A DNA stretch of 64,000 nucleotides from Atractiella rhizophila (taxonomy: Eukaryota). Shown here piece by piece: positions 4,674 to 28,142 of this stretch. The stretch's first letter is position 1. Each line of letters opens with the position of its first letter. The translations under genes and the position numbers were made by a program. Location of the stretch: NCBI GenBank assembly GCA_021432655.1, contig MU271231.1, forward strand, positions 1 to 64,000, written 5' to 3'. The notes beneath the pieces were generated by a model, which had not been told where the DNA came from, did no database searches, and saw only the letters and a list, made by a program, of their open reading frames with translations.

Positions 4674-4734
4674 AGCATGTTTCCCATGTTTCCCAGGCAT
4701 TCAAACATGTTCCCGAAGTTTGCAAACATGTTTC
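4674..4734. repeat. AAACATGTTT(CC) satellite, left flank of Copia A1
   Basis: Same units as 9606-9844; adjoins the N gap at 4649-4673. Confidence 0.85.
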
Positions 4735-4934
4735 TGTTAGTTGTAGTGTGTTGTTTTGGTCATCTGCCTCTTATGACTCTTATGACTCGTATGAGTCATC
4801 ACTATATAGTTTAGTTCTGCCTAGGAGTGTTGGTGCTCATTATTGACCACCAACCACTCCTAGGTATGTCTCTCTATACTTCTCTAATGTGCTTATTATT
4901 GACCACCAACCACTCCTAGCCTTAGATCCTTACA
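4735..4934 (+). repeat. 5' LTR of Copia A1
   Basis: Direct repeat of 9406-9605; followed by the PBS. Confidence 0.97.
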
Positions 4935-4947
4935 TGGTAGCGAGAGC
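4935..4947 (+). promoter_or_regulatory. Primer-binding site, probably tRNA-iMet
   Basis: TGGTAGCGAGAGC directly after the LTR; an identical PBS follows the unrelated LTR at 36053. Confidence 0.8.
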
Positions 4948-5542
4948 TGGTGGCTAGGATTACACTTTGCCACACCCATCACCTTCCCCCTCCTCCAGAC
5001 CACATTTTCACCCTCCTGCACTCAAATTTCGCTCAATTTCGATGATCAAGACAGATCTGTGATCCTCAGACCTTCCTTTACCACCTTAGAAGGTGTCTGC
5101 TTACTCAGGAATCAAGAAATATCGAAATTTATCACCTTACCACCCATCTCCTGCTTCAAAACGCACTTTGCCACCCTGCACTCAAACTTTGACGAATTTG
5201 GACGTTATAGGGCTTATTTTGATCGTGAAACACTGCGCTACAACTTTACTAGGAACCATTTTGGTCACAATAAGCGAAAATTTCGAGATAGCCACTCCAT
5301 CACCTCCTTCATACCCCCAAAACGCATTTTTCGACTTTTTGAAGTCAGATCTGGTCTGATCTGGACATTTTATCGCCATTGGATTCACAATAGGCTATTC
5401 TACTATCCTACAACAGATCACCTTGATCAGAAGAGTCAAATTTTCGAAATTTGCCACCATCACATCATCATCACATCAGCCCCTATCACTCTTTCTGCAT
5501 CACATCAGGGGATCTTAGGACTCAACCACAGGGTCTAGGAGG

Positions 5543-8500
5543 ATGTTTGGGATGGAAATGGCTCTTAATGGGTTGGAATTTGCTGGGCTGAACAGTCTTG
5601 CTGCAGCAAATGATGTTACTATGCCTCAAGCAAGCCTTGAGTGGATAGCAGACACTGGTGCAACTTCCCACATGTCTCCCCATCGTCATTGGTTCAGAAC
5701 CTATCACAAGAAAGTTATTCCTATCAGGGTAGCAAGTGGAGAAGTAATTTGGAGTGCTGGGATTGGGAGCTTGATCTTTGAAGCCAAGTTGGGGGAGAAG
5801 AAGACCATCACCATCACCATCTCAGATGTCCTACATGTCCCCAAGCTCTACAACAACCTTTTATCAGTCTTCAAGCTTACCATCTACAAGGGAATGAGGG
5901 TCTCCATCAAGCACAACAAGGTTCTCTTCTTCCAGCATCAAAAACTCTGCCTTACTGCCACTGTGGACTACAAGAATGGAAGCATGGCTGGGATACTTGA
6001 TGGGAACACCCTTCCTGCTCCAGAATTCGCTGGGAATGCTTCTACACTGCCCATGGATGCTTCTCTATGGCATAGGAGACTTGGACACCTGAATTATGAG
6101 GACATCAAGCGTCTGAAGAGGAAGGAACTTGTGAATGGGATGATTTTGGACTTGGAGGATGATCCAGACCCTATTTGCGAGCCATGCCTAGCTGGGAAGC
6201 AGCACAGGGTCTTCAACAAGTCAGCAGAGACCAGGGAGAAGGAAGTACTGGGTAGGATCAGCTCAGACCTGCATGGACCTCTTCCAGTCACTTCCAGAGA
6301 AGGATATCGATATTGGGTCACCTTCATCGATGAAGCAACAAATCATTGCACAATTGCCTTCCTCAAGAAGAAATCAGAGGCCCCAGAACTCTTCAAGACC
6401 TTCAAGAATTGGGTAGAGAATGTTACTGGGAAGAAGATCAAGAAGTTTAGAGAGGACAAGGAAGGCGCTTATTCCTCTAAGGAATTCGATCAATACCTCA
6501 AGGCCTGTGGTATTCAGCGCGAACAGACGATCAGGAACTCTCCTCACCAGAATGGCAGGGCAGAACGAGCTAATAGGACGATTCAGGAGACTATGGTCGC
6601 CATGTTTGAAGAATCTGGGCTTCCTCTCTTTCTCTGGCCATCTATCGCTTCAGCAGTTGTCCACATTCGCAACAGATCTCCCTCAGCTTCAATCAACCAT
6701 GCTATTCCCCACACGAAACTCACTGGACTTACTCCAACCATCTCAAGATTCAGAATCATTGGATGCACTGCCTACGTTCAAGTTCAGAAGGATGAAAGGC
6801 CACACAGCTTAGGATCTCATACTCGAAAATGCGCATTTATAGGCTATTCCCTTGCAGCGAAAGGGTGGGAGTTCTGGGATCCTGTTGCAAAGAAGGTCTA
6901 CGTTCGAGATGTTGCCAGATTTGATGAGAGAGAGATGCTCTGCAAGGTCAGGAAGGAGAAGATTACGTTGGAAGAGCCACAGGGACCACTTGATGAATGG
7001 AAGGAGCGTCAGGATCAGGTGGGAGATGGACAGAATAATGCTCCAGCCGCTCCTCCAGCCAGGATTTCGCTAGACGACGATGAAGAAGAAGAAGAAGGAT
7101 GGATTCGACAGCCAGGAGCACCACCTACACCTCAGGACCAACCCAGACCACTTGGAATACATTCTCCAAATCGGTTTCAGCCCTACAGGTAAGAGAAGAA
7201 GAAGAAGAAGAAGAAGAAGAAGAAAGAGCCATCTCCAGATCCGCTACAGCTTGTGCCTGAACGCCCTAGGACACCCCACCTCGTCAGTACACCATGCAGA
7301 GAGATCCTTGGACAGGAGTTCATATGCCTACATTCTCAGAGTCTCCAGATCCACTCCAGATCCGCCCAACAACGCCAGATCAACCTCCTCCAGCAGCTTC
7401 GACACCTCCCCCTGTCAACAGGCCTTCAAGAATTTATTCTACGAGTAGAGGACGACCTGTAGACAGATTTAGGACCCCAGAAGCCCCTCAAAACAATGAA
7501 GAGTCAACAGACGAGCTTGGGATGTTGGTAAAGGAATGTGACGTACTCACTGAGCCAGAGGCGATGGAATATGGCTATATGCTTGTCACAGAGCATGCCA
7601 TGAGTGCAGCAACAGGAGTAGAGGTCCCTCAGTCATATTCAAGAGCGATGGCAAGCCCTAATGCGAAGGAATGGCATGAAGCGACAGTGAAGGAGATTCA
7701 ATCTCACTTGGACAACAAGAGTTGGATTCTGGTCAAACCGCCTAAAGGAGCAAAAATTGTTGGTTCTCGATGGGTGTTTGCGGTTAAGAAGAAGTCAGAT
7801 GGTTCTATTGAGCGCTTCAAGGCCAGATTCGTCATCAAGGGGTTCTCTCAACGCCCTGGATTCGACTACTTTGATACTTTCGCATCGACGGTCAAATGGG
7901 CGACACTTAGGACAATTCTTTCGCTCGCTTGTGTCTTGGACATGGAGTTGGAGTCAGTGGACATCTCTACGGCATTCCTTAACGGCGATATGGATGCAGA
8001 GGTCTATGCACAACAACCAGAAGGTCATCCACAGGGTCCTCCAGAGTACGTTCTCAAGCTAATCAAGGCCATCTATGGCACAAGGCAAGGAGGGCGTCAA
8101 TGGCAGAAGAAACTCGATAAGGAACTCATCGATATGGGATTTAAGAAGATCAAGAGCGACTCTAGTCTGTGGATTTACTCGAAGGGGGACATCAAAGTAC
8201 TTGTCCCGGTCTTTGTGGATGATATTACGATCGCTAGCACATCAAAGGGTGCTGTAGAGGACTTCAAGAGGGAGTTGGGGAAGCGATTCAAACTCAGAGA
8301 CCTTGGACCAACGGAATTCCTACTTGGGGTTCGTATTAGGAGGGATAGAAAGCGAAGAATGATGTGGTTGGATCAAGAACAGTATGTTAAGGACCTCCTA
8401 GAACGCCAACAGATGGACGATTGCAACCCTGTCCTCACTCCTCTCAACGTTGGACACGGTCTCAGCAAGCAGGACTGCCCTCAGACAAAGGAAGAACAAG

Positions 8501-9200
8501 AAGAAATGCGCACAATCCCTTACAGCAACGTTGTTGGCTCCATGATGTACTTGGCCATCTCCACTCGTCCAGATATCGCTCATGCAGTCTCTGTCCTTGG
8601 AAAGTACCTCTCTAACCCAGGAAAGAAGCACTGGGAAGCGGCCAAGCATCTTCTACGATACCTCAAAGGAACTCAGAACTTAGGAATTGAGTATTCTGCA
8701 GCTGGTTTTGACCTCAAGCAACCTTTTCACGCCTTCTGCGATGCAGATTTTGCTGGGTGCAAGGATACTGGACGTTCTACGGGAGGCTATCTCCTCAAGA
8801 TAGGCAACGGAGCGGTCAGTTGGAGCAGCAAACTACAATCCCTCGTTGCCCTTTCTACTACCGAAGCAGAATATGTCTCAGGAGTCTCAGCAGGTCAAGA
8901 AGTTGTCTGGCTAAGGAATCTTCTAGAAGAAATTGGCTTCGCTCCTCAAGGTCCTACAGCTCTCTTCACAGATAGCAGCAGCGCTCTACAGGTATCCAAG
9001 AACCCTGAGCACCATGGTCGAATGAAACACCTGGACCTTCGCTTTTATTGGCTCAGAGATGTTGTTGAGATGGGCAAGATCAGTCCAGTCTTCTGTCCGG
9101 GGCCAATATGCCAGCGGACCTCCTCACCAAGGCACTTCCAGTCGCCAGCGTGGACAAGTTTCGACTTATGATGGGTTTGCGCCCCTACCCAAGTGTCTGA
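5543..9200 (+). pseudogene. pol: Copia pol (protease, integrase, RT, RNase H) with a stop and frameshifts
   Basis: WIADTGATSHM; WHRRLGH..CEPC; SDLHGP..QNGRAERANRT; FKARFV..; VFVDDI; FCDADFAG..STTEAEY. Stop at 7190-7192 next to a GAA run; frameshifts near 7290 and 9100. Confidence 0.95.
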
Positions 9201-9405
9201 GGCAGTTATGGGGCGCAATAAAATTCCTTTCCTCCTCTGTGGGGTTATAAGACGCCGCTTTAAGCGGTACGAGGACTTTTCCTCTTCTTTTCATTGCAAA
9301 AAACTAATATGCTTTCTGCTTTATATCGAGTATACATTGTATGAATTCGGTGGGAGATTCTCTGGATGTGGTGGGAGCATCAAGAGACAGCTGCCCAGGT
9401 GGGAG

Positions 9406-9605
9406 TGTTAGTTGTAGTGTGTTGTTTTGGTCATCTGCCTCTTATGACTCTTATGACTCGTATGAGTCATCACTATGTAGTTTAGTTCTGCCTAGGAGTG
9501 TTGGTGCTCATTATTGACCACCAACCACTCCTAGGTATGTCTCTCTATACTTCTCTAATGTGCTTATTATTGACCACCAACCACTCCTAGCCTTAGATCC
9601 TTACA
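9406..9605 (+). repeat. 3' LTR of Copia A1
   Basis: Direct repeat of 4735-4934; followed by the GTTTC TSD. Confidence 0.97.
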
Positions 9606-10107
9606 GTTTCCCATGTTTCCCAGGATATCAAACATGTTCCCAAAGTTTGCAAACATGCTTCCGACTTTGCAAACATGTTTCCCATGTTTCCCAGGACTTC
9701 AGACACCTTCCCGAAGTTTGCAAACATGTTTCACATGTTTCCCAGGTATCCAAACGTGTTTCCCAGGATATCAAACATGTTTCCGAACTTTGCAAACATA
9801 TTTTCCACTTTGCAAATATGTATCCCACATGTCCCAGGTTTGCAGTGAGGATGGGCTAACATGTTTGGAAAGCTTGGAAACACGTTTGGAAAGATGGGAA
9901 ACACGTTTGGAAAGACAGGAAACATGTTTGCAAAGATGGGCAACGCGTTTGCAAACCTGGGAATGACGTTGCAAACGTGGGAAACATGTTGGAAACCTTG
10001 GAAACATGTTTGCAAACATGGGAAACACGTTTGCAAAGATCGGAAACTCCCGTGGAAAGTGGGAATGACGTTTCAAACCTGGGAAACACGTTTGCATAGA
10101 TTGGAAA
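9606..10107. repeat. Palindrome-core satellite (21-bp and 9-bp units around AAACATGTTT) in two opposed arrays
   Basis: Forward array 9606-9844, short spacer (GTGAGGATGGGCT), reverse-oriented and more diverged array 9858-10107. Confidence 0.9.
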
Positions 10108-11192
10108 TGAAAGCATTTGAGGCTAGAAGTAGTTGGTGGTCAATAATGAGCACCAACACTCCTAGGCAGAACCAAACTACATAGTGATAACTCATAAGAG
10201 TCTTAAGAGACAGATGACCAAAACAACACACTAAGACTAACACTCCCACCTGGGCAGCTGTGTCTTGATGCTCCCACCAAATCCAGAGAGTCTCCCACCG
10301 AATTTGTACAATTTATATTCAATATAAAGCACAAAGCATATTAGTTTTTGCCATCAAAGAAGAGGAAAAGTCCTCGTACCGCTTAAAGCGGCGTCTTGTA
10401 ACCCCACGCAGGAGGAAAGGATTTTTATTGCACCCCATAACTGCCTCATACACTTGGGTAGGGGCGCAAACCCATCATAAGTCGAAACTTATCCACGCTA
10501 GCTACTGGAAGTGCCTTGGTAAGGAGGTCTGCTGGCATATTGATACCCGGACAGAAGACTGGACTGATCTTGCCCATCTCAACAACATCCCTGAGCCAAT
10601 AAAAGCGAAGGTCCAGGTGTTTCATTCGACCATGGTGCTCAGGGTTCTTGGATACCTGTAGAGCACTGCTGCTATCTGTGAAGAGAGCTGTAGGACCTTG
10701 AGGAGCGAAGCCAATTTCTTCTTAACGAATCCGTAGCTAGACAACTTCTTGGCTAGCTGAGACTCCTGAGACGTATTCTCCTTTGGTAGTAGAAAGGGCA
10801 ACAAGTGATTGTAGTTTGCTGCTCCAACTGACTGCCCCGTTGCCTATCTTGAGGAGAGAGCCTCCCGTAGAACGTCCAGTATCCTTGCACCCAGCAAAAT
10901 CTGCATCGCAGAAGGCGTGAAAAGGTTGCTTGAGGTCGAAATCAGCTGCAGAATACTCAATTCCTAAGTTCTGAGTTCCTTTGAGGTATCATAGAAGATG
11001 CTTCGCTGCTTCCCAGTACTTCTTTCCAGGATTAGAGAGGTACTTTCCAAGTACAGAGCCTGCGTGAGCGATATCTGGACGAGTGGAGATGGCCAAGTAC
11101 ATCATAGAGCCTACTACATTGCTGTAAGGGATTGTGCACATTTCTTCCTATTCTTCCTTTGTCTGGGGGTAGTCCAGCTTGCCGAGACCATG
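10108..11192 (-). mobile_element. 5'-truncated Copia A2 (RT end, RNase H, 3' UTR, short LTR at 10108-10242)
   Basis: Reverse complement of about 8455-9605 with scattered substitutions; its LTR is 135 bp. Confidence 0.93.
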
Positions 11193-12308
11193 AGGGGCTG
11201 ATGTGATGACCTTCCAAGTCTTTCCTGATGTCAGAGTTGACAGGCTCGCCGTTGAAACAACAGCTGTACGTGTTGAAAGGTTTTACCTGGACAATTCAAT
11301 CAGCCATGATATGGAGAAACATTGTATTGGTCACATACCACACTTTCAACAGAGGTCCTTCCACGCAGAGCGGTTACTTGTGTATTTTTGGTTGGGGTTC
11401 CTGTGCATGCAGCCTGATCTCACGCATGTACACTCTTAACACTCCCTACCCCTAATCCAATTGAACAAGAAGAACAACTTACTAAAGATCCAATCTCAGG
11501 GCCGACAGGCTGTTCGCCATCGCCAGCGACAACACTGCTCCGTTGACTAGCTTCCTTCTCTGCATATTACTTTTCGAGTAGTGGAAGCTCTTGTAACCTT
11601 GACATTGCTGGAGATTTGCCGAACGTTGGCTTGCGCTGAAATGCGAGTCGAATACGAGGTGGTAGCAGGACGGGAGCGATGTCATTTGTCAAGAGGTCGT
11701 AGCTTTGAAGACGACTGGTGGCTTCTGCCGAGTGTTAAACGCTGCGAACCTCCCGAAGGTATCAAACGCAGTGGCGAGTCTGGTCCTGGACTTGACATGA
11801 GTAATGTCACAACTTGAATGAAAGAGAAATTGTGAGAGTTGAGATGGGATGGGACACACCTTTTTAAATCATTCATGAAGAATGTCACAGGAGAAGAATA
11901 TGATACTTGTGTGGCCTGCAGATTCAGAAAATTCTGTGATTGACAGATTGACGATGAGCATAGGAAGGTGGAAAAACTCTTCTTCTTGTATGAATGCGAC
12001 GAAGCATGCAGGTCTAAGCCGTAATACTGAGTCAGCGAATTTCTATGGTACTTCCGAAACTGAGCTTGTTTTAGTCCGTAAGACTGTATCGGCTAGTGTG
12101 GTCTTCTCAGTATCAGTGCGGGCTCGACAACTGTTTGTAACAGTTTTGTTAGTACAGTTTCATCCGTACCGAACTGTATTGGTGGGAGCACTGGAAACAA
12201 CCACGCTTTGCGTAAGTGGATGAAGTTTACGAATAGTATATTTAGTTGATGGATGTTGATAGCGGTTGATAGATGTCAACAAAAATTGCTGAACATAAGT
12301 GAGCAAAA

Positions 12309-12948
12309 TCCTTATATAAAAAGCACGAAGGGTCTGACCATGACTCACGCATGTACTTTGGAGCTCTTATATCACTGCCCACAACAACCCTATCAGAATT
12401 CTGAGCATACCAACAGAATGCGCGTGTTGGCGCCCTTCGAACTGTATACAGCAAAGCCCATTTGAAGGACAAAAAAAATTGTTTTCCTTACTGACTTATG
12501 TGACTTCTTGATCCACAACAACGTCGTCAAAATTCTCAGCATACCACCAGAATACACGTGACAGCACCTTTCGAACCATATACAACAAAGCTTATTTAAA
12601 AGATAAAAAGCAATTGTCCTCATAACTGAGTCAAGTGACTGGTTTTGTCACTTTGGCAAGATTTTCCTTATGTACTTAAAGTAAGTTGACAACGTAGAGA
12701 GTCTGCGCGATGGTGTGGTTGGTGTTATGTGGGATTGAAACCTAATTTTGCTTTTGACATTATTGACATTATGTCACCCTTGAAGCCATGAGTGCCTGCA
12801 TACAATTTAACAGATAATGTAGATTCCAACCAAGTGTTATGAGTACTCAATTACTGTTTATATCTCAGCCAGTATAGTCAACCAATTTTTAGTGCAAAAC
12901 AGTGGAAACTAGATGTGATCTCCCGAGGGACGAGGGGCCCCCAGCTTG
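12309..12948 (+). mobile_element. Non-autonomous Helitron, family B
   Basis: A|TCCTTATATAAA start; CCCGAGGGACGAGGG hairpin then CAGCTTG|T end; homologous to 56107-56326. Confidence 0.8.
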
Positions 12949-13238
12949 TCAGTACAAAACGCGTAATGAACAATATATTGACTATGATATTCTGCCCAAT
13001 TGATCCTTCGTAATATGGAGGTAATTGCTGTAGGGGAGAATACAACCTCGCCAAGCTTCAGCACGTTAGCGGCCAGGAGGACAGCCGACAAGCTGCTGAA
13101 ATGTCAATCCTTGTGGTTTGGTACGGAAACCCTCAGTTGAAGGCAGTGAGATACCTGTACTAATGGCATTCCCTCCTGTATGGGTCCATTGGAGCTTTCA
13201 AATTTCAAGGTCATACGCTAGGGTAACGATTCAGAAAG

Positions 13239-14811
13239 TTAAAAAGTATCGTCCCATGCGAGAACACCTGTAATGGAAAAGGGAACCTTCCGGTAAACCC
13301 ATTTCGAAAATAACCGCCCGTCCATTCGATGACTTCCGACTTTCTTGAAAAAATGGGTTTGGATTTGGCACAACGGAATGCTAGGATCGATGGTACTCGA
13401 GTCACAGCAAATAAATCTCTGAAGCTCCGAGTCCATGAGGAAGAAGGTGTCTCCATCGCTCATTTCCGTCGTCACGTTTGCATTCGAGGACGTCAAGAGA
13501 TTGAGGAGCTCCAAACCTTCCATCAAACCCCAACCATGCCCGAAAATTCGTAATCTCCTCAATCTCCTCAAGGCTTTCTTTTCTCTCTCCCCATACTGGC
13601 CCACCAATGCTTTCAGGACGACCTCCGCTTTCCATTGTTCATTATTCCCCACACGGAGTGCCATTGTTTCTAAGGTATCAGGCAGACCCTTAAGCGCACT
13701 CCTTCCGTCCAGAGCATTCCCACCAAGATCTACCAGAGCCTTAAGGCTCTTCATCTTCCCCAACAATGGACCTAAGAAGCTGGCGAAACAGTCGTCGTCC
13801 CAGGAGGCTTTCCAACACAAGGTTTCGAGGTGAGGGCAGAGAGGCTCGAGAGCCATTGGAAGATGCGAGGCGGAGTAACCGTCGGACGAGAGGTGAATGA
13901 GTGCCAAGGATCGGAGAGAGACCGTGACCCAGAGGAAGAGGGTGGAGAGATCGGACGGTCGAAGCTTGCACTCGTAGAGGGCGAGATGGGTAAGGGCAGC
14001 TAGACGCCTCACCGGAGGCTTTGAAGGGGAGGAACGAAGGTAGTGAACCGTCAGTATCTGTAGGTTCGGAGCGACTTTTGATATCCTTTCCAGATCCACC
14101 AAGCTAATCCGTCCAAGGTGAGTGTTTTCTTCTTCCCCATCGTCGGGATTCAATGTCAACTGTTTTAGGTTGTCCATCTTCCTGCCCTCGCCGTCGTCAA
14201 AGCTGAAGATTAGAGGAAGATGGAAATCCACGATATCAGCTGCGTGCCAGCTGATCCACAACCCCCTCAGGCTTGGAAAGGAAGCCAAAGTTTTTCCTAA
14301 ATCTATTGAAGCGACTTTTCCGCGAGTCGAAGTGCCTTCTTCAGTTTGTTCCTCGGAATCCTTTTCGAAAATCCAAGAAACATTTTTCACTCGCTGCCTC
14401 ATCTCCATTCCTCCGTTGATGACCCCTACTTGTGTTAACCATTCAATCGCTTTGAAACTGGGATATCCCTCCCGCGTAACCGTTGTACTAGTAGATATAC
14501 AAATAGTATGCAACCAGCATTGCAGTGCTGCCACCCGGAAGCGGCTGCAAACAAGTGAAAGTAGTCGGAATGAAGAGTACGAATAGGATCGCGGCCAGGA
14601 GGAGTACCAAATTGGAGACCTAGCCTGTACACTTTTGTTAGTAAGGTGTAAGTGATTCCACTATTGACAGCACCTCAACCTTGCCAGGGGATAGAGAGGA
14701 GGGAACTGAGGATCCTTGCGAATCATCGGGAAGCCTATGTTGAAGGTCAAGGAGGTGCAGCCCGATGATATGCATGAGGAGCTCGATGGGAAGAGACTCA
14801 ATGGAGGCCAT
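13239..14811 (-). CDS. F-box plus LRR (RNI-like) protein; N-terminus interrupted (intron or frameshift)
   Basis: MASIESLPIELLMHIIG F-box start at 14811; the 431-aa ORF has repeated LxxLxL motifs (PSLRGLWI, PNLQILTV, LTHLAL, SLRSLAL, PHLETL). Confidence 0.65.
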
Positions 14812-17421
14812 CTGTGTTTCCGGTCAGCGTGCCCCTCACGGCTGGAGGCGGCTCAACACAGGAAACTGAAGTGGAAGGCGGAAGAGGCACCACCACCCCT
14901 CAACTTTCTAAGTTGGACCACTCTGATTTCTCGCTTCTATTCTCAGAAATTATTAGAATCAGTTTCGAGGTGGTTGATGCGGCCATCAGTCAGCAAAGGG
15001 CATTTATCCAGCGCATCCGCATCAGAAATGACTTTTGATCCAAGGTGTTAGGAAACTGACCGTTTGATCCAGGTAGCCACAAGAAATGACTTTGATCCCC
15101 GTTCCCTAGAATGACTTGTTGATCCAACGCAAGTATATGACCATTGATCCAGGGCAGAGTAAACGATAACAGTCCTCTTTCAGATTCCTTATAAACTGTT
15201 GGAACGCTGAATCAACTCAGTCATCGCCATTCTGGTCCACCCGAGAGGGGAAACCTTCCTAAACCACAGGAAAAGACCGTGATCGCCGGCTGTCGTTTGT
15301 GAAGGACCATGTTTCCTTCAATATGTTCAGATGATCGCTATGGGGCCTATCCTACTTGATCGTAACCAGTTCTGTCGCGCGAGAGGAGAGTTCAGTCGCA
15401 GGGGAACCCGAATCGTGCAGGGTGGTGGCGGAGGAGTCAATGGATTCTATCGCGCGAGAGCAGACTTGGCTTGCTGGGGTTCTATCGCGCGAGAGTAGAG
15501 TTCTGTCGACGATATGTGTCTCGCGTCGCCTCTCAGTCCCCGCACATGCCTCGCCGGTTTCTCACGCTTCTTGAAAGACCATCAGCCAGTGAAGAACCCG
15601 AACTCAATTATTTATGCATTAGGCCATGTCATGAGGAAAGAGGTACTCACATGAAGGTAGAATACATGGAGGACACTCTGGGAACACAGTGCATCAGCAG
15701 TTTTTGAGCGGTGGCCATGGCCCTATCCATCTTAGGATAGCTCCGGTTCTTGTCACCTGGGCTCTATGGCAGCACCATAGAAGCCCTACTATCGCCCATC
15801 AGTTGCTCTTCACCCAAAAAATTAAAGTGTCCCAATCAGTTCATAAGGTTTCGGGCGGTCGGAAGGCGGCTCCCATCATGTGACCATGACCAACAATATG
15901 GTTGGGTTTCTCACCAAAACAACCACATCAGCCACATCCCTCCCCTTTCGTCCTCCCTCCGGATCCATGCTCGCATTCCTCCCGAAAATCGAAATCAGGT
16001 AAGTGACATATCGTCATGGGTAAACAGAAGGGGGAAGGATATGGGAAAAAAGCCGGGAGGGGTCACAGCTGACGCTACAATGTAGTCCCTATTTTGCCCG
16101 AGTTACATTGGATGGTGATTAAGACGGACTAATTGAAGGTCATCTGGTATTGTTGGCCACATTTCATTTCAATCTTGCACACAGGAAAAAAATAGTGTCA
16201 CGTTCTTTCTCATCGTCAACCTGAAAAGTTTACAAAAATCTCAGGCTGTCTCTACCTCGCTGCTCATTTACACATCCGTTTACACGAGCACATGACACAT
16301 GACACACACTTGAATTCAAACCCCCCCCCCCCCCCCCTGTGAGGAGAGACCGACCGCTTTAAGTTTCCCGATTTCCACTCATCCCTTCACCTCCTTCACC
16401 TTCTAGGTTTCAAAAATTCATCACGTCGAAGTCACCACCTTCGATAGAACAACCCGGAAAAACTCCGCATCTTCAAGTCGTTATAGTAGATGTATCTTGC
16501 TTTCCATGACTGTCAACCTATCATGGACCAAAGGGAGGTTGTGGAAGTCGTTGTCGACACAGCTATCAGTCGGAGTTTAAGCAGTAATTTCTCTTCATTA
16601 CTGTTCTCCCAAACATCAACTTGCTCTCCCAACTAGGTGGGAAGTCACCACCTCCTTCATCGAAATCGTGATTCTCTGACAGGTTTCAAAAGCGAATGCA
16701 AAACATTATTTCGAGCTTTAAGAATGCAAGGCTGACGTCTTATTTTGAGAAGGGGTTGATGGATTGAAGGGAAGACGCCCCATGCCGATTTTAGATTTCA
16801 CTTGCACCCCCTCCAATTTGTTGTCTGCAGGGCAGCCAACAGCAAATTCTCAACAAACTATCTGAATTTAAGTCCATTTAAGTCCAAATCCATTTGACAT
16901 ATATTCCGCACGCTTTGGACAAAAGGATCACACCTTACTGGACACCTCCAACAACTTGAAATCTAACTACCTTACCCCATTTGACAAGCCAGTGGTCAAG
17001 CAAAGTGGTAACGCCCGCCAATTTGCAGCCAAACTCATGATACTGTAAACGAAATGAAAGTGAATCATACTAGTAGAAAGGGCCATTGCCGCAGCGAGCA
17101 CCATTCTTATGGCCGTTGGTGAAAGTTCTTTGGTTACCAAAGTTTGAAAGAGCTGACGGGAGAGTAACAAAACTCGATTTCGTGAACAAAATTTACCCGA
17201 TTACAAAGAAAGTGGCGTTGCAACAACCGTTCTTTGCTTCCCGCAGCGTTGCTGTTGAAGTTCAGCCCGCCACCACCACTCACGGCTTACTAAGAACGAC
17301 GCGATGCCACATATTCGAGGGGATTCTATTTTCTTCTCGCTTCTTCTTGCTTACTGATTTCTTACGCGTTGGTGTACTTTCTAGAATTTGTTTGCCACAC
17401 CTTTCTCAGATATATAACCCG

Positions 17422-19400
17422 TGTTAAAGTCTGGGAGAAATAGGCAGTAATGATATCCTTGTTTCCTCTTAACTTAAACCTCGCATCATTATTCGTAGTC
17501 TTACAACAGTTGCACCAGATACGGTCAAGGGTACAGTTTGTTCCTTCGGCAAGACAACACCTCGAACTAGCAGGAATGAAATCATCCCTTCTTATTATAC
17601 CTTAACCTATGGAGGTATAGTTTACTGTTCAGCATTCATCCTGCCACCTCGCTTGAGTCGTAGCTGTTCTCGAACTATCTTTGTGTTGTCGTTATTGTTC
17701 ATCCTGATTGTTGATCTGCTCCTTGTTCAAGTGTTTTCACTTTGTTACGACTATTCTAGAATCCTCGTTTCATATGTATATAAAGTGTGTACATAGCACA
17801 GTAGTATCAATCCCATCCTACGATAACAACATGTTGTGAGTCAACGAGCTCATAACACAACTCAGTACCTGAGAACGCAAGAGACGAGTAAAGGCATCAA
17901 CAAACTAATCCTCCCCCATCGCCTAGCACAAGAGATAGTAGATCGAGGTATCGATGGGGAACGACAGTCAAAAGAATGCACAGTGGAAGGCGATTACAAT
18001 TCCAGCAGATCCACCTCCTCAGCACAACCCTCCAAATGGTGACTAACACGACACTAGGCTGGCTTCCAAGTTCAAAGACTATGGTGATGCTGTCAGGACT
18101 TTGCAAGTAGGAATGATGGAGATTAGTGTGCTGGGGCCCTGCAAGCAGTGAAAGATGTTCGGCCAGAGGTTAGTGATTGTTTGTGAATCATAGCAAGGAT
18201 GATATAACAGGCGAATGGTTTCAGCTGGAGAGGAAGGATTGGAAGTACATGACGAACAAACTGACTTCGCATACACTTCGACTCGAAGGAAGGTTAGAGG
18301 GTGTGGTGAAGAACAGCGGATTGGCCGCGAAATCAGGTTTCGAGGCATTGGTTGGATTAGGGGATTCAAGCTGCTGAATTCAGAACATGAGCAGGGCTGG
18401 AAAGGTAAAAGAACAGTGTAGGACTACTGTTATCCCTCGATAAGCGACGGGTGATGACGTGGCGATAATAGGCAAGCGATCGACATACGACGGTGTTAGG
18501 AGGACAAGGATAGGTTTGATGCTTGCTAAAGAGGTTGGAATGAAGACAAGGGAGGCGTTGTACTTTTTCTTGGTAAGTGGGAATATGGAGTCGAGGAAGG
18601 GGCTGAACTGGACGAACATAGAGCTTCCAGGCACCTTTGAAGGGCAAGAGGCTGAAGGAATGCAGGATGGGGAAAAGGAGAGGATTCAGTAGCCTTAGGG
18701 GCAATACGATTTTGGGGCATGGCAGAACATAAGGTATTGCCATGGCAGATGGCAATACGATTGGCGGAAGGGCAGAACGCTAAATTGCAGTTTCAGAGGA
18801 TTGTAGGCATATCTACCAGTCAGGCAATATCATTTATTTCAAAGAGGCATATAATAGGGATTCCCACGGCTCAAATGGTCGATTGAGACGGGCACTCTTG
18901 CTCGCGACATCTGATCCTGAATCTTCCGCTCTTCGAACCATCAGAAAGCTGCAGGAATGCTTACCACAGAAGATGACCCTCCTTCACTCCTTGAGAAGCG
19001 CTCTTCGTTGTGAGTGGATAATCTTGTTTTGGCATTCTCGCAACGGGTCGATTCGAAAAGAACAACACGAGACAAAACAATTACAATAAAAATAGAGCGC
19101 CTCAAAAGAATTCAAAGTTAAGCTCAAATTAAGCTCCCAAAACAGCATGGCAGCTAACTGATGTGGCCGCCTGCCTGGCAGAACAATAGCAGAACAAAAA
19201 AGTTGCTGTGGCAGAACGTTGGCAATACCTTTGGCAATACCTTAATGGCAGAACGGTAAGGTATTACCCCGCACGCTAGGATTCAGGATATAATCACGAA
19301 GTTGAGCAAGATAGGATAATGGTAACAGGATGAGCACTCCCTGAGAAGGAGAAAGGCATACAGCCTAGAAGGCATGGCAGTTAGCTTCGTGGAGGAACAA
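17422..19400 (+). mobile_element. Possible decayed Copia 5' LTR plus gag remnant
   Basis: TG...CA segment 17422-17831 followed by TGTTGTGAGTC (resembles a GGTTATGAGCC-type PBS) and broken gag-like peptides. No second LTR found. Confidence 0.3.
18690..19278. mobile_element. hAT-type MITE
   Basis: Imperfect TIRs TAGCCTTAGGGGCAATAC / GTATTACCCCGCACGCTA; perfect 8-bp TSD GGATTCAG (18682-18689 and 19279-19286); subterminal GGCAATAC/GGCAGAAC motifs. Confidence 0.88.
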
Positions 19401-20707
19401 TCGGCTTACGATAACATGAGTCGGGAACCCTGAAACCTCCTTTCTCCGCTTTCGTTAAGCACTCCCATTTGACCTCTGGGACAGCCCTCCTTCTTCGTTG
19501 GCACCTTTTCCCCTCCGGACTCTCGACTTCTCCCTGATCACTTACCTGCGTCCACCCTTCCCGACGTAGACGTGGGTCCATTGCCAAAATATTTTTTTTA
19601 AGTTCATGCCCCTACTGTATGGCACACACCCAATTTGCAGGCAGTCAGATATTTGCCGCAATCGGAGGGGCGGATGGTGTCGTGATTGGGTGATTGGGGG
19701 CTAGCAAAAGGCCTCGCCCCGACTGACACTGCCTGCGCACTCAGGTAGTCCGTGCCTGCGCTCTTCAGCTGCAGCTGAACAGTGGGGCAAACTGGTCACC
19801 CTGAGGGTTTTGCAATGCGGCACAAGGCCGCTCGATCGAAAAGGGTTTGCGGCTCAGTCCGGTGAAGATTTGCGTACAAAGCTGGTGCACCAGTTTTGGA
19901 GCAGTTTTTAACGCCGACATCGCAGGGGGCGACGGGTCTGCTACAAGCTGTGCTCCAGCACCTCCTTTCAGTGATTGTGGGAGACAAGACGATTGAAGGC
20001 ATAAATCTGTCAAAGGACGGTGGATTGGATACACATGAGCAGACAAGATTCAAAATTATGCCGAGTGAAGAGGAAGTCTTAACTCCAATACTCAATAATC
20101 GTTGATTGTTGGTTCGGAGCCTTACTTATTTCATCAGTGCCGTTCGTGGGCTGGAGCGGAACTAACCTTGGGTCTCAGTAGCAAACTTGCGGCCAGTCTG
20201 AACACGGAGTGCCATCTCCACAAAGTTAGGTTCAGTGGAAGTCTGGTGTGCCACCTCTGTTTCGAAATCTGGAGCCTAGAAGAAGAAAAGCATACGTTGT
20301 GCTGAATCCTATAGTTAGGGGTACCGATTGATCCATCGTCGTGAGATGACGAGCTCCATGCTCGTGCTTGGGTGATGACGGCAAGAAGTGTGAGACACTA
20401 CCGCAAAAAGCGAGTTCCTTTAGCTCGACTAGAGCGAGAACTAAGAGGCTCAATCAATAAATGAGAGCTTAAACGAAAAGGAGAGACAGGAACCAGCTTA
20501 TGCTAACCACACCGAAGTGTAGGGCCGCTTATCAAGCTATTTGGTCTCAGAATAAAGACAATGGATCTTACAGGGCTTCAACGGCCCCGGGAACTTGCCT
20601 CGATTCTTATTGCGCTTTCTGCTGTGAGTGCGAAGTAAGATGATGAGGAATAAGATGAATTTTCATTAACAAGTAAGGCCTCTTTTATAGGCCAATGAAT
20701 CGGATAA

Positions 20708-20992
20708 TGACGAGATACAGAACTGTGAGCACTGCAAATGCGAGCCACAAAAGTGATTAGAATACATTGCATTGGTACTTAAGAGAAATAACTTCACCCC
20801 CAAATGCGAGCCACAAAAGCGATGGGACTCGCACTGCAGGGATCTGGCATATTTGTGGAAAATATCACCGTAGCCCTTCGCCGTTCCTTGAGCCAATTAT
20901 TAAGCAATAGAAGAAGAAAAAGGGAAAGAGAAAAAGTCACAAGACCGAAATGACGTAGGAAGTGAGAAATGTGAATGCGCAAATGTCCATCA
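20708..20992 (-). repeat. Solo LTR (Copia family C)
   Basis: TG...CA ends with GATAA TSD (20703-20707 and 20993-20997); homologous to the LTR at 28587-28762. Confidence 0.82.
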
Positions 20993-22199
20993 GATAAAAG
21001 ATCAAACAACATCGCGAGAAAACCTGTAATACACGAATAGATAGAAATATGGAATGATCTGAAAGCGTGGAACGAAGAGGAAGCTGAAGGGAATCAACGA
21101 GTCTCGCCAGGGAATCGACGGATCTGGCCTTCCAGCTTCTGGATAAGGCTAAAATACCATGCAGTTATCTCTCCCTTTCTCCCGATCGATCGTACGCGCT
21201 TGGAGCCGACAGGAGGGTGTAGAGAGACGAGGAAGTTGTGAGGTACGCAGTGGTCAATGGGACTTCCATGTTAGGCAGGAGCCGCTTCCAGAATAGGAAG
21301 GTATTGCCGCATTTGACCATTGTGTCTCACAAGTCCATTGGAATTTGAGCGGCTGAGTTATTGACAGGAGTGACAGGATGATAATGGAAAGCTTGCCAAC
21401 ATCGAACGGATCTCGGCATCCTCCCCATCTGCCGCCACTTGAATTGAGGTCCTTCGAATCTGCTGTCATGCATGCTTTTCACTCCCATGTTGCTCCGATT
21501 CCTTTCAACCTTCCAAAAACGGCGAATTTTTGTCCGTTTCTACGTTCCAATTCAAGGAGGTCTCCCAGATCACGCTCTTTCATTCAATATCTAGCCAGGC
21601 TATTTTGCAGCTAGTCCACTCACTCTTCGATCCAAAACCTGCTCCTCAACCCTCCAGCTTCAGAGCTCTTTGACTGAAGATTGCCATTCGTGGATGTGAA
21701 TGAAGATTGAAGCAACGAAGTGACAAATGTATTAGCACTGCGAAGTGCGAGATAACAATGAGTATATGTTGCATTTAGTATGTAAGGAAACTACATTACC
21801 TGCGAAGTGCGAGATAACAATGAGTATAAGTCTCGCACTTGCAGGTTTACAAGCTTTTATAACAGAGAGATCCCTGTGGCAAAAGATTGGCCACAGTTCC
21901 AGAAAGTGCTCGAAAGAAACTAAACGCGCAAGTGGCGAAAGGAGGAGGCGCACGATTCTGTCACGAAGTGCACATCGAAAAAGCGAACGATTGATGCGAA
22001 GGCCGCTTCTTCTCACTGTCATTGTAGATCGGTTCGACCGTTCAGTCAAATGGGCAAAGCTATTTGCAGCTGCCGCGCAAGCTGAGGAACGTGTCGTACT
22101 CTGCTATTCACGGTACAGAGGACTTCATTTGCATTTTAGCGTGTGCAAATATGTAACGTGGATTAGAACCATTGACTTTGTTCCTCGCCTTCCATCTTG

Positions 22200-22665
22200 C
22201 CACCTTCCCGTCTGTCAATTCCGGGACTTGGCTTCACAATGATCACGCAAAGTCGTGTTTTTATTCACGCTGTCAAAATCGGAATGTTCTATTGTACCAG
22301 TCGTCATCCCTTTTGAGGTTAGTGGAAAACTCGCACCGGAGGACAAGGAAGGAAGTGGGGATCACGCGAGATATCGAGAAGCAATAGGATGTTTGATGTA
22401 CATCATGATTGCAACCCGTCCCGATATTGCTTTCGCTGTCACTCAAGTTGCACAGTTTAGCGAAAATCCTCTTCCGGACCATTGGCAAGCCGCAAAAAGA
22501 CTATTTCGTTACCTTCGGGGAACTAGCAATGCAAAACTCACATACCAGACGGGGGTGAAAGACCTTGTTGCTATTCCGATTCCGATTTCGCTGCCAGCCA
22601 CGATCGAAGGTCCATTTCAGGAAAGCTCTTCACACGCGCTGGAGGAGCGGTAATTTGGAACAGTA
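22200..22665 (+). pseudogene. Copia RT/RNase H fragment
   Basis: YREAIGCLMYIMIATRPDIAFAV..AAKRLFRYLRGT, YSDSDFA..RRSISG; cut by a Helitron 3' end. Confidence 0.85.
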
Positions 22666-22947
22666 CAAGTGTATCAGCGGCCTTCGTCCCTCAGGCCCCC
22701 CAACCCACTCGCAAGGGGCATGGCCCCTTGAACCCTACTGTAACTCATGTAAGGGTTCGAGTCCAGTATGGGATGCATTTTTTTACCCCCTCAGAATAAA
22801 ATTTCCTCGCAGCTTCAGAAAGGGGCAAGCATATGAGTTATGATGGTATAATTCATTTCATTCTACTGTGCATGGTGTGGGAGGTGTGAGGGCTCAAAAG
22901 TGCGTCTTATGACTCACGCCAAGAAACCCAACGCTCTTAGAAGAATA
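22666..22947 (-). mobile_element. Non-autonomous Helitron, family A (5' tip interrupted)
   Basis: Hairpin-CTTG|T end at 22666; homologous to 44522-44804. Confidence 0.82.
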
Positions 22948-25900
22948 CAAGTGTGTCAGTGCCCTCGTCCCTCGGGCATCCCCCCCCATGGGCTTCGCCC
23001 CTTGGACCCCAGCCTCCGGCGGCCACTGCGTGGAGCTCTTGCCTCTGGCAGCCACTACGTGGGGCCTCGCCTTCGGCGAGATCAGAGTTACACTTGTCCT
23101 GCAATTGTCAAGTGTGAAGAGTATTGTCAGTCTATTTGCATACGTTCTTGTAGATTCAAAACTTCTCTATATACTACATTCTCAGTTTTCTTATTATCAG
23201 TCCCTTCCACTTGATGTAAATAAACTCTAAGATTTCTTCACATTTGAAGCTCTTGACAGTCTGACATAAAGTTGTCCATGAGCAAACACAGGGGTGTCCA
23301 AGTATAGGCCGACAGTCTCAACTGACTGACCTTGTGACTTGTTGATAGTGAGGCAGAATGCTAACTTGATTGGGAATTGAAACTGGCGTAGGACAAAGGG
23401 AAATGAATTGGAGACTTTGCTATCCAAAGTGATGCGTGGAATGAGAACTGAGTTGCCTGCGAATGCACCTGTGACAATTGTTGCCTCGATGACGCGAGAG
23501 AGTAGCTGGGTAACGATCAAACGTGTACCATTACAGAGCCCAGCAGAAGGGTTGAGGTTTCGAATGAGGATGATAGGGGCTCCGACTTTGACATGCAAGC
23601 GATGAAGAGGAAGGCCTGTAACATTGAGAGTATTAAGGTACTCGACCGTAAAGCCTTGCTGAACATTCTCATTGTCATCCATCAAACGATCAGCACTGAG
23701 ATAAATTCGTTCCTGTCGGGAGATAAATCTTCGGATAAGCTGATCATTTATCAGGTCGACATCAACGTTTCGAGCAGTGAGGACCATGCGCTCTTGGAAG
23801 TACTGCCTCAGTTGATCACGATATAGGTCTTCAGTTATGGTGTTAAGCCCAGGATAGATGTCATTTAAGAGACCTTCCAGGCCACGTGAGTGTGGGATTA
23901 TTGTTCCATCCTTCATGGTCAATGGACCACAACCACAGTCATCTGGGTTGTCAGTTGCACCATTTCCAACTGGCAGCAACCAATTAGCAAAGTCAGAAGC
24001 GATAGCAAAGTCATCAGCTGCCATATCAGCCTGGTGACGGAGAAGACGCATGTTGACCGTGAGAGGAAGGATCGTAACTGCTGGCCAAAACGGACTGTTG
24101 ATGACACATGCATCAACAATCTGTGCACGTGAAGCCTTGGGAATGACAGAGAGGCATTGTCGCATGTCACCTAATCTATTTATCAGAGGTGAAGTCTTTG
24201 AATTATCCCACTTACCACCTAGAACAAAAATTACTCCGCCAAAAAGCGCATCTACTTTACGCATATCTCTCAGCATCCGATCGACTGCCTCAAAGCACCA
24301 ACGATGGCTCATACCCACTTCATCCCATATTATCAATTCTGCCTCACGGCAAAGTCGTCCATGATCACTCTGAGCCTTAACACCACAGATTGAATCTGCT
24401 TCAAGGTCCAATGGTATTCGAAAGCGTGTGTGGGCAGTTCGTCCCCCTTCCAACAGGATAGCAGCAATGCCTGAGAAGGCCACAGCGAGCGCAATCTTCC
24501 CAGTTGAATGAACTTTGGCAAGTAGTAAGTTTTCAACAAAAGTCTTTCCTGTCCCTCCTGGCCCATCAATGAAGAACAGACCTCCACTTCCCTCTTCCCA
24601 AGCCGCTATGATGGTGTCATAAGCATGACGTTGATCCTGATTAAGCAACAGCACCTCCCTGTTGAGACGCTCTTGAAGTTGCAGACAACCATATGCCAGC
24701 TCTTCACCAATTATTCTTGTCTCACCCCCCCACCTTTCTAACCTCTCTGTCGGTTGTGGTAGTCCAAAATCCGACAGAGACTTTGTGTGAGCCTGTAAGA
24801 GATCTTCAATCTCGAGGAGACAGAGACTGATGATTTGTTCTTCGTGCGGATTGGCTATACCGTACTTTTGTCTGCAGTAAACATTTGCAATCATCGCTAA
24901 GTCGTTGATGATGGTTGTCCCATAACCTTCTTGGTTCACTTGCGACACCGAAAAGAAGGATATAGACAAAAAGGGGACCGCATAGCATGACCATTCTTGA
25001 CTGAGCTGGCTTCCTCAAGGCAAAAGTCCCATTCTTCATCGCTTTCTAAAAGTCCCAGTGCCATACATGCGGCCTTAAATGTTTCATAAACCCTTCNNNN
25101 NNNNNNNNNNNNNNNNNNNNNNNNNNNNNNNNNNNNNNNNNNNNNNNNNNNNNNNNNNNNNNNNNNNNNNNNNNNNNNNNNNNNNNNNNNNNNNNNNNNN
25201 NNNNNNNNNNNNNNNNNNNNNNNNNNNNNNNNNNNNNNNNNNNNNNNNNNNNNNNNNNNNNNNNNNNNNNNNNNNNNNNNNNNNNNNNNNNNNNNNNNNN
25301 NNNNNNNNNNNNNNNNNNNNNNNNNNNNNNNNNNNNNNNNNNNNNNNNNNNNNNNNNNNNNNNNNNNNNNNNNNNNNNNNNNNNNNNNNNNNNNNNNNNN
25401 NNNNNNNNNNNNNNNNNNNNNNNNNNNNNNNNNNNNNNNNNNNNNNNNNNNNNNNNNNNNNNNNNNNNNNNNNNNNNNNNNNNNNNNNNNNNNNNNNNNN
25501 NNNNNNNNNNNNNNNNNNNNNNNNNNNNNNNNNNNNNNNNNNNNNNNNNNNNNNNNNNNNNNNNNNNNNNNNNNNNNNNNNNNNNNNNNNNNNNNNNNNN
25601 NNNNNNNNNNNNNNNNNNNNNNNNNNNNNNNNNNNNNNNNNNNNNNNNNNNNNNNNNNNNNNNNNNNNNNNNNNNNNNNNNNNNNNNNNNNNNNNNNNNN
25701 NNNNNNNNNNNNNNNNNNNNNNNNNNNNNNNNNNNNNNNNNNNNNNNNNNNNNNNNNNNNNNNNNNNNNNNNNNNNNNNNNNNNNNNNNNNNNNNNNNNN
25801 NNNNNNNNNNNNNNNNNNNNNNNNNNNNNNNNNNNNNNNNNGCTTCAGCATCCCTAATGGTATCTTGTGGATGAAGAATGATGAGAATATGAGCATGAGG

Positions 25901-27397
25901 TAGACCACGTTTCTGAAACTCAATTACCCAAACAAATCCGACTGTCCTCCCGAAGATTGCGTTCTCTTTGATCTCCCGCATATAGGCTTTAACCTTTACA
26001 CTGAAGACCCTAGAGACCAAATCTGGTCTGTCTGTAGCGGTTTGTCCAGGCAGTAAAGCTTCAGTGATTTCTGGCCAGCGAGGATTGCAGGTAAATGTTG
26101 TAAAGATAGTAGGAGAGCCTCGGTTTCCAACAATCGCCATTGCATCCTGAAACTGTTGATTCATCTGCCGAGGACCGCCACTGTGCGATGAGGGCAGAAC
26201 AGTTCGCCTGCCAACATTTACAGGGTCTCGTCCATCCTCCAAGGCATCGCCAAGCCCAGCATAAGACTCTGTTCGGAGCAATCCTTGATTGAATCGAAGG
26301 AAGTTCAATCGTCCACTTTCAATTTGTGCATATGCATCACAAACAAATTCCTGAAAGAGACGGCCGCCATGATGAATGAGAGAGAAGGTGTCCTTTTTTA
26401 AATGGAGAAGGTAAGAGTAGTAGTTCATTTGAGTAACGTGATCCTGTTCTCCCATGTTTCCAACGATTTGTCCATCATCGTTTCGATATTCCTCCCGTGG
26501 TCCAGGTCGAAGCAAATCTTTGTCCCGTAGGGGAATATAGGCATGCCATCCTTGCTCACCATAAGGAAACAAAAGTGGAAAACGCAGTGGAAGGTAGTTG
26601 GCATTCTGATCACTGACTTTATCATAATAGCGCTGACCATCAGGACGCCTAAGTTTGACTATAATGTCTCTCATAACCCCTGCTGAGGCTCCTGATTCCC
26701 CTCCAATGATTAGAACCGCTATTTCTCCTATCCCATGGCCTGTTGGCTTATTGTATCGCCGAGGGTCCTTGTCCTTGGGATCAATAGTTCGAAGGTGTAG
26801 TTGTAGTGTGGGAGCGTCTTGCATTCGCTCCTTCGCAATTTGATAGATATATGGCCAGGGATTCTCGCGCCAGATCATATCTTGAAGTCTTCTTAATATA
26901 TTCTCCTTTAACTTACTCCCCCCAACAACTCCTAACCTCTGCTGGATCTGTTCTGATGGATCGAGCATGTAGATCTGTGCAAATTTCTCCTCACCATCAG
27001 AGTCTGGTAGCAGTGTCCCAATTCGATGACAAAGCTCTCCTTGGATCCGGAAAGAATAAACTCCATGACCTGGAATAGGAGGTCGCTTGACACCAAGGGA
27101 AGTAAAGGAAAGAGCGTTGTTATAGGAATGTATATTCTCGCGGAACTGTTTCGATTCTGGTGCTTCAGGATTAAGAAGCTGGAGTAGTTCTGGAGGAGGG
27201 TCGTCATAAGCTGGCAGGACTACCTTTCCATGGAGACAGCAATAAGAAAACTCTGGTCTTCTTTTGGAGCTATCTGACGTCCTTTCCTCTAGCCAACGAA
27301 ATGCACCACAGTGTGAGCAGAAGACAGTGTTCCAACCGGAGAGTTTCAAGGTTTCAACAGTATGCGGAGAATAGTTGAATGCAGCAAAAGGATGACG
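22948..27397 (-). mobile_element. Helitron 1 with RepHel (HUH Rep plus Pif1 helicase), 5'-truncated, contains an N gap
   Basis: VIEFQKRGLPHAHILI; FFIDGPGGTGKTF, IIWDEVGM, QFPIKLAFCLTINKSQGQS, FAHGQLYV. 45-nt GT-AG intron at 24171-24215. 3' hairpin plus CTTG at 22948. Frameshifts present. Confidence 0.95.
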
Positions 27398-27818
27398 GCC
27401 CCTACCCAAGTGTCTGAGGCAGTTATGGGGCGCAATAAAATTCCTTTCCTCCTCTGTGGGGTTATAACACGCCGCTTTAAGCGGTACGAGGACTTTTCCC
27501 CTTCTTTTCATTGCAAAACTAATATGCTCTCTGCTTTATATCGAGTATACGTTGTATGAATTCGGTGGGAGATTCTCCGGATTTGGTGGGCATCAAGAGA
27601 CAGCTGCCCAGGTGGGAGTGTTAGTTGTAGTGTGTTGTTTTGGTCATCTGCCTCTTATGACTCTTATGACTCTTATGAGTCATCACTATGTAGTTTAGTT
27701 CTGCCTAGGAGTGTTGGTGCTCATTATTGACCACCAACCACTCCTAGGTATGTCTCTCTATACTTCTCTAATGTGCTCATTATTGACCACCAACCACTCC
27801 TAGCCTTAGATCCTTACA
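27398..27818 (+). mobile_element. Copia A3 remnant: pol tip, 3' UTR and LTR (27619-27818)
   Basis: Near-identical to 9181-9605; the LTR is followed by GTTTC and satellite. Confidence 0.93.
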
Positions 27819-28142
27819 GTTTCCCAGGATATCAAACATGTTCCCGAAGTTTGCAAACATGTTTCCCATGTTTCCCTCGATATCAAACATGTTCCCGAAG
27901 ATTGCAAACATGTTTCCCAGGAATTCAAACATGTTCCCGAAGTTTGCAAACATGTTTCCCGACTTTGCAAACATGTTTCCCATGTTTCCCAGGAATTCAA
28001 ACATGTTCCCGAAGTTTGCAAATGCCTTTACCATGTTTCCCAGGTATCCAAACGTGTTTCCCAGGATATTAAACATGTTCCCGAAGTTTGCAAACATTTT
28101 TCCCGTTTTTCCCTCGATATCAAACATGTTCCCGAAGATTGC
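27819..28142. repeat. AAACATGTTT satellite array
   Basis: Units AAACATGTTCCCGAAGTTTGC and CATGTTTCC, as at 9606. Confidence 0.92.

Follow-up and report, generated by a model that had tools for sequence, protein, structure and literature searches.

The closest described counterpart of the system reported here is Tal1, an ALE4 Ty1/copia element of Arabidopsis lyrata that enters CENH3-covered satellite via the C-terminus of its integrase (PMC11735389; meeting report PMC12859917). According to the accessible sections of that paper, the targeting was demonstrated by de novo insertions and CENH3 overexpression, the local bias of Tal1 is separate from its regional chromatin targeting (PMC11735389), and its binding partner is still to be found (Supplementary file 1 of PMC11735389); the searched parts of the paper and its supplements contain no mention of CENP-C. 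The earlier note on this DNA, which listed Copia targeting to chromatin or Pol III regions (Ty1 and Ty5), left out Tal1 and hence a Copia element that enters centromeric satellite through CENH3 chromatin. In transposon-cluster ('omega-state') centromeres, nested piles of one LTR lineage are found; the accessible part of a centromere atlas so classes 34 of 49 fungi, includes a moss with Copia clusters, and gives no satellite architecture among the 49 fungi, for which the supplements may list repeats (bioRxiv 10.64898/2026.09.17.752431). The CENP-C motif, in turn, has a precedent for use by a second protein on CENP-A nucleosomes, M18BP1/KNL2, in the part of the source available (PMC13021935). 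Neither the accessible part of a Microbotryum paper nor searches under the organism name gave anything usable on karyotype or centromeric Copia.

The window, that is, the whole stretch of 64,000 bp analysed here (C52:1-64000), belongs to an assembly of 51.5 Mb in 1,998 contigs, and consists mostly of transposons (LINE, Copia A, another Copia, and two Helitrons). The copies of Copia A, the satellite arrays that they adjoin and one neighbouring element are as follows.

4674-4734, + strand: 21-bp satellite, left flank of A1 (61 bp), preceded by a 25-N gap; its final GTTTC is the target-site duplication (TSD)
4735-9605, + strand: Copia A1, whole element, with GTTTC and satellite on both sides
4735-4934, + strand: 5' LTR of A1, TG..CA, 200 bp
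4935-4947, + strand: putative primer-binding site, common to A and its sister family B
5519-7192, + strand: first part of pol (protease, GAG-pre-integrase, integrase core, SH3), with no gag upstream
7270-9171, + strand: second part of pol, in a different frame (integrase C-terminal linker, RT, RNase H-like end)
7429-7473, + strand: degenerate A1 counterpart of the CENP-C-like motif of family B (8/13), without the anchor arginine and the tryptophan
9396-9405, + strand: polypurine tract, common to A and family B
9406-9605, + strand: 3' LTR of A1, 200 bp
9606-9845, + strand: satellite, forward array, whose opening five bases are the second TSD copy GTTTC
9846-10107, - strand: satellite, inverted and more diverged array, whose outer end is the A2 junction (TTTCC)
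10108-11192, - strand: Copia A2, a 135-bp LTR (10108-10242) and a 3' internal remnant, 86-92% identical to A1
22665-27397, - strand: Helitron (Rep, PIF1), truncated at the A3 remnant; a neighbour outside the targeting system
27398-27818, + strand: Copia A3, a 421-bp 3' remnant comprising an internal part and an LTR (27619-27818)
27819-28142, + strand: satellite array, 324 bp, starting with GTTTC

Like Tal1, as far as the accessible account of the latter goes, Copia A resides in a tandem repeat, makes a 5-bp TSD and has a weak symmetric local bias apart from a probable regional targeting; the Tal1 determinant lies in the integrase's basic C-terminal region, and the candidate motif described below lies in the integrase C-terminal linker. 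Unlike Tal1, the present system offers old insertions only, and its arrays are sub-kilobase in size and hold 7% of the sites, the rest being in nested piles. A and B share such nested piles with omega-state centromeres, from which they differ, within what the atlas text covers, in having a short satellite as a second substrate, in pile fragments of 5-25 kb and in that the centromere here is putative.

The two LTRs of A1 differ at 1 of 200 bases. Its protein domains follow the order protease-integrase-RT, with RVT_2 (Pfam on A1), and the pol frame is broken at an AGA run (7194-7224). The earlier note had described all three copies as ending directly in the satellite, and these junctions are real: A1 has satellite and the TSD GTTTC on both sides, A3 reads LTR|GTTTCCCAGG, and A2, whose diverged and shorter LTR had also been remarked upon, reads LTR|TTTCCAATC in the register TTTCC. 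The 5' junction of A3 is lost, so that the CAT preceding its cut is deduced rather than observed. A read-derived contig of 400 bp at single-copy depth covers 9758-10157 with both arrays and the A2 junction; the inverted arrays and this junction are thus present in the reads, which may come from the source sample. No joint of 4734 to 9611, as expected of an empty A1 site, was found in the contigs of two runs, an absence that proves nothing about such an allele.

The 135-bp LTR of A2 is without one 9-bp unit and without a 56-nt GT..AG block. This block is flanked by direct repeats, occurs in the A LTR at 4864-4919 and 9535-9590, repeats at its end the stretch that precedes it, and is missing from the short A LTR variants, including that of A2. 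Elsewhere in the window, long open frames (473, 423 and 520 aa) with no Pfam match are located at 13239-14660 (-) and 36192-39317 (+), and 36606-38214 is a tandem duplication of ~805 bp (97%).

The satellite unit is 21 bp long and has a degenerate 9+12-bp structure. The palindrome AAACATGTTT, which the earlier note took to characterize the whole satellite, is indeed present (10 exact copies in the window), but as one variant only of this unit; AAACGTGTTT is the predominant reading in the older arrays. Pattern searches throughout the genome located the satellite on C52, C161, C58, C1282 and C1270 only, with a total of 5,051 bp (~5 kb of 51.5 Mb) when array boundaries are drawn by eye. Both satellite orientations occur at all three main loci (window 9606-10107, where the arrays are arranged head to head; C161 18.7-19.9 kb; C58 99.9 and 128 kb), and the arrays abut gaps or contig ends at C52, C161, C58 and C1270. 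Within the C161 arrays there are also a hAT-like element with an 8-bp TSD, an inverted-repeat element flanked by TA and a high-copy insert of 73 bp; the arrays are therefore an old sink as well. A short element with an 8-bp TSD in the window (18690-19278) matches both ends of this hAT-like element. The satellite there is adjoined by another 21-bp tandem repeat, related to it and 1.5 kb long (C161:32566-34057; L053), into which neither A nor B has inserted.

A coding repeat was considered and rejected: the units in the window are multiples of three, but stop codons interrupt every frame of most arrays, and units of 22 bp occur in the older arrays. An origin of the satellite from A or B was likewise discarded, with no similarity to either reference at E 0.05, as was the notion that C52, C161 and C58 are alleles of one locus, the sequence common to the parts examined being repeats only. 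We also rejected an estimate of satellite copy number from summed contig depth, as such depth is no copy number; by this measure the satellite bin is 6-20 times lower than the Copia internal bins.

The LTR ends of A were collected genome-wide by pattern search (130 3' ends and 108 5' ends, of which 128 and 108 are within the 747 kb examined, so that the census is almost complete). The 173 outer ends in the first 567 kb resolve into 126 distinct sites (19 two-ended, 47 with a 5' end only, and 60 with a 3' end only); three ends that were short, next to Ns or similar to a primer site were removed before the count, as were 22 junctions that duplicated others, and two doubtful extra ends were also left out. 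Addition of A2 gives 127 A sites, which is an upper bound, the lower bound being ~80 insertions. In accordance with a Ty1/Copia element, the LTRs run from TG to CA and 23 end pairs share a 5-bp TSD, which become the 19 two-ended sites once duplicates are removed.

Nine of the 127 A sites are in the 5,051 bp of satellite, where uniform insertion would place 0.012, so that the satellite link seen in the window holds genome-wide with an enrichment of ~720-fold over uniform and of 4-8-fold over the density in the piles (P 5e-4 to 5e-6 for zones of 271-500 kb). These nine insertions are inside the repeat, in both orientations and in three satellite subtypes. In addition, one solo LTR of family B is found in a C161 array (TSD TTTAC). 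The five contigs with satellite carry 11 A/B sites, of which 10 are inside it, the sole exception being a solo LTR ~1.5 kb from a C58 array. The DNA between the arrays on C52 and C161 contains no A/B insertion, and hence the target there is the array itself at sub-kilobase scale; two C58 arrays (1,037 bp) also contain none. The A copies have a CpG decay of 14.7%, versus 2-3% in other contexts.

At L020 (C665:1586, -) and C119:102571-102761, LTRs are bordered to the left and right by internal sequence, which makes these arrangements tandem or shared-LTR ones; on C665 the primer site continues into a short tRNA-like stretch; and an old A LTR at C782:12797 (L006) terminates in a different short tandem repeat.

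The earlier note had suggested that A homes into the palindromic satellite, with CAT|GTTTC as the core. In its strict form, such homing would have the integrase itself recognize this sequence. The cut of A1, and probably that of A3, is at this point, and the copy on C1282 is cut at the equivalent CTTTC. However, the TSDs of the nine satellite sites, read in the satellite orientation, fall into five classes: GTTTC (A1 and A3), TTTCC (A2 and three on C161), CTTTC (C1282), and CAAAT and AAAAC (C161). Registers other than GTTTC and its CTTTC equivalent are used by six of the nine, and only 2 of the 127 sites are in the GTTTC register, at odds with a fixed target. When TSDs and 50-nt flanks were tabulated for the 118 sites outside the satellite, none had the TSD GTTTC or GAAAC, and none had the CAT|GTTTC motif or satellite-like sequence within 50 nt. 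The census thus refutes sequence homing, which is almost certainly wrong.

What the 118 sites do reveal is a weak palindromic bias, with no position above 0.33 bit: G/C at -3 and +7, T at -10 with A at +14, A at -5 with T at +9, and A/T in the centre of the TSD. The combination of A/G at -5/-3 with C/T at +7/+9 recalls the target consensus of Tos17. The matrix built from these 118 sites gives the nine satellite sites an average rank at the 75th percentile among satellite positions (P 0.0035), and yet rates the satellite below the DNA of the zones (0.78 versus 1.11). By the matrix the satellite is no more attractive than zone DNA, so sequence alone is not what draws A there. The local register is tighter than this bias: two adjacent registers hold 7 of the 9 A satellite sites versus 17% expected (P 1e-4, class chosen post hoc), and AAA or TTT occurs in 10 of 10 A/B satellite TSDs versus 46% expected after weighting (P 4e-4, class likewise chosen post hoc). 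The residue may reflect phasing on positioned nucleosomes.

The satellite insertions of A are independent and non-random. In a tree of 35 copies (3' UTR and LTR), the six satellite copies in which this region is present require six changes (shuffled-label mean 5.7), and 0% of 200 bootstraps give a single change for these six; well-supported inner branches are few (6 of 32) and by themselves force at least two origins. The earlier note's claim of separate insertions therefore stands, and the satellite flanks do not derive from a single ancestral flank. One might suppose instead that one or two ancestral insertions were copied along with the adjoining DNA, through duplication, inversion or exchange between arrays, as the inverted arrangements and rearranged blocks at C52 and C161 would suggest, along with the 22 duplicated junctions elsewhere in the genome, some of which are probably allelic. 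The A3 junction equals that of A1 less one 9-bp unit, and the A3 site ranks low on the matrix (8th percentile). Against copying, the satellite sites have their five TSD classes and both orientations, and the six copies differ by 2-16%; over 425 positions A3 differs from A1 at 8 bases and in 4 gap columns, compared with 1 in 200 between the LTRs of A1, and their arrays are far more different. For the satellite set as a whole we regard copying as refuted and very improbable. The divergence clock between A1 and A3 is weak, so that A3, taken by itself, might yet be a (slipped) derivative. On C161, one element with unlike TSDs and LTR types at its two ends is a recombinant or a mis-join, and its junctions were counted separately. 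Two oppositely oriented A copies (C161:19187 and 23637) are cut at the same near-palindrome of the 3' UTR (A1 positions 4521-4525) and flank a rearranged block.

Outside the satellite, A is found mainly in repeats (102 of 118 sites) rather than in unique DNA. Neither of the two outcomes that the earlier note would have taken as a refutation, random sites in unique DNA or one flank common to all satellite copies, therefore applies as it was worded. Seventy-six of these 118 junctions are inside copies of A (27) or of B and B-like elements (49), spread along them and in both orientations; 26 are in other repeats and 16 have no other copy in the DNA examined. The association is specific to the two families: 50 of 53 LTR 5' ends of B lie 10 kb or less from an A end. 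For the RT hits of other Copia the figure is 8 of 106 at most, and some of these 8 are probably A/B copies outside the sequence examined (143 RT rows were used, from 150 listed among 151 matches, with 37 of A/B and 106 of other Copia). The merged A/B zones sum to 271 kb and many reach contig ends, with pile fragments of 5-25 kb; zones that run into contig ends fit centromeres, and equally any repeat pile. Such clustering resembles that of Ty5-like elements, Ty5 having a Sir4-binding domain, and that of the Tcn elements in the centromere clusters of Cryptococcus.

On balance we consider it probable that a pile-forming Copia pair is directed by chromatin rather than by sequence. The A/B integration complex would favour a single type of chromatin, most probably the CENP-A chromatin of centromeres. 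Such chromatin would here consist mostly of earlier A and B copies, which would account for the shared nested piles that the two families build. The rare 21-bp satellite is a second substrate: A has entered it nine times or more, spread over a long time, and B once. It probably carries or carried the same chromatin as the piles; a tether or centromeric-chromatin link to the satellite, as the earlier note had supposed, is plausible. The cut inside an array would be set by the weak palindromic preference of the integrase together with phased T/A tracts, which the register data bear out in part. Several observations count against the chromatin reading. The sub-kilobase target on C52 and C161 is finer than a regional domain would suggest, the C58 arrays and the related 1.5-kb repeat of C161 are unhit, and the cut positions are more concentrated than the matrix would give (7 of 9 versus 17%). 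In addition, DNA transposons are also present inside the C161 arrays.

The near-confinement of A/B sites on the satellite contigs to the arrays (10 of 11), with none in the DNA between them, and the sharp register, with 8 of 10 TSDs in two adjacent positions, would also suit a satellite-specific tether, in which a host protein binds the palindrome of the repeat and recruits the A integrase, separately from whatever builds the piles. Such a tether leaves 118 of 127 sites to another cause, the A/B reference and the 50 nt around those sites having no satellite-like sequence; moreover, the C58 arrays are unhit, and the insertions are inside the repeat, in both orientations and across three subtypes. 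We consider it unlikely. A passive sink is rather unlikely as well. Old dispensable arrays would retain any insertion, and short-read assembly would keep mainly the array pieces anchored by a junction, in line with the hAT-like, TA-flanked inverted-repeat and 73-bp high-copy elements of the C161 arrays and with the gaps or contig ends that border arrays at C52, C161, C58 and C1270. Yet persistence alone fails to explain why A and B, and not other Copia clades, pile together; neighbouring repeat DNA is without A; and the depth of the satellite, 6-20 times below that of the Copia internal bins, is a weak sign against a large collapsed array.

The two families are likely to act as a dependent pair, judging from their sequences. 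A and B have a common primer site and purine tract, and their pol is 70-77% identical. B carries gag (Pfam PF14223), upstream of pol as in autonomous Ty1/Copia elements, whereas A has no gag: tblastn of the B gag against A1 gave no hit at E 10, and the stretch between LTR and protease aligns collinearly with that of A1 in 15 further A copies, so that the absence is family-wide. A would have to borrow gag, most simply from B. Barley BARE-2 is likewise a gag-defective Copia element.

Within the diverged integrase linker, B reads RYPERQRRPPVEFWK; five of seven full-length linker hits preserve this stretch, and the remaining two each carry a single change. The motif in these 15 residues is spaced like that of CENP-C (R, anchor R, R, P, aliphatic, E, aromatic, W, and K), and CENP-C/Mif2 and M18BP1/KNL2 show this spacing in alignments with PDB 4x23, 7bxt, 7xhn and 7on1, which were found with the host motif. 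Unlike CENP-C, the B motif is in a retrotransposon integrase and has no downstream G-E..Y part, and the A version has neither the anchor R nor the W; the anchor arginine, proline and aromatic pair stand at canonical spacing in B and not in A. As the fungal CENP-C alignment gave one homologue only, a 13-point score was made by hand; it was made after B had been seen and is therefore post hoc. On this scale B scores 13/13, A1 8, the host CENP-C 8 and the 21 other Copia of the genome 5-8; the best shuffle reached 11, once in 20,000, and among 1.49 million translated residues a score of at least 11 is attained by B copies alone. Ten of 152 distant homologues (64 with a delimited linker) score at least 10, and many others have the basic-proline half only; this half being common, what B carries is a version of a feature general to Copia, with a CENP-C-type aromatic pair. 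One motif-bearing homologue is labelled a bacterial MAG protein.

An inspection of the integrase C-terminus for a targeting domain, which the earlier note had recommended, therefore yielded a CENP-C-like motif in B, by a post hoc score, and a degenerate one in A; a Pfam search of both linkers found no targeting domain, and a PDB search with the B peptide did not return CENP-C. The motif is present in clustered B, absent from the 21 other Copia and degenerate in clustered A, a pattern within one clade. We found no proposal of a CENP-C-like or acidic-patch motif in retrotransposon integrases in the full-text literature, from which subscription journals are largely absent. By its resemblance, this basic-proline-aromatic motif is the candidate targeting element of the A/B complex. 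A bolder version, which we think doubtful, has the B integrase mimicking the CENP-C motif and docking on CENP-A nucleosomes, with gag-less A riding in B particles and the arrays being a CENP-A satellite in the course of being overrun. Satellite sites number 9 of 127 for A and 1 of ~70 for B (Fisher P 0.10, not significant), and the motif of A is the degenerate one; that A, with such a motif, is more often in the satellite than B, and that the host motif also scores only 8, count against chromatin-directed targeting.

Arrays that carry CENP-A would be an exception to the fungi without satellite centromere architecture, whereas arrays without it would make this an ordinary transposon pile with a minor satellite preference. 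For recognition by centromere-seeking retrotransposons, the 15-residue CENP-C-like integrase motif offers a direct peptide-binding test.

The host CENP-C gene is present on two contigs (C351 and C289) at 98.8% identity, which suggests two haplotypes. One exon is 100% identical to a protein listed by NCBI under Atractiella rhizophila. Its motif (L201:1861-2211, -) keeps the arginines, the proline and G-E..Y; the usual Y-W pair is absent, and a splice-donor-like word stands there. We note that the linkers of A and B (window 7270-7530; L144:2000-2250) also conserve the islands QRDPWTG and ESPDPLQ and an acidic DEL block, which are further candidate targeting motifs.
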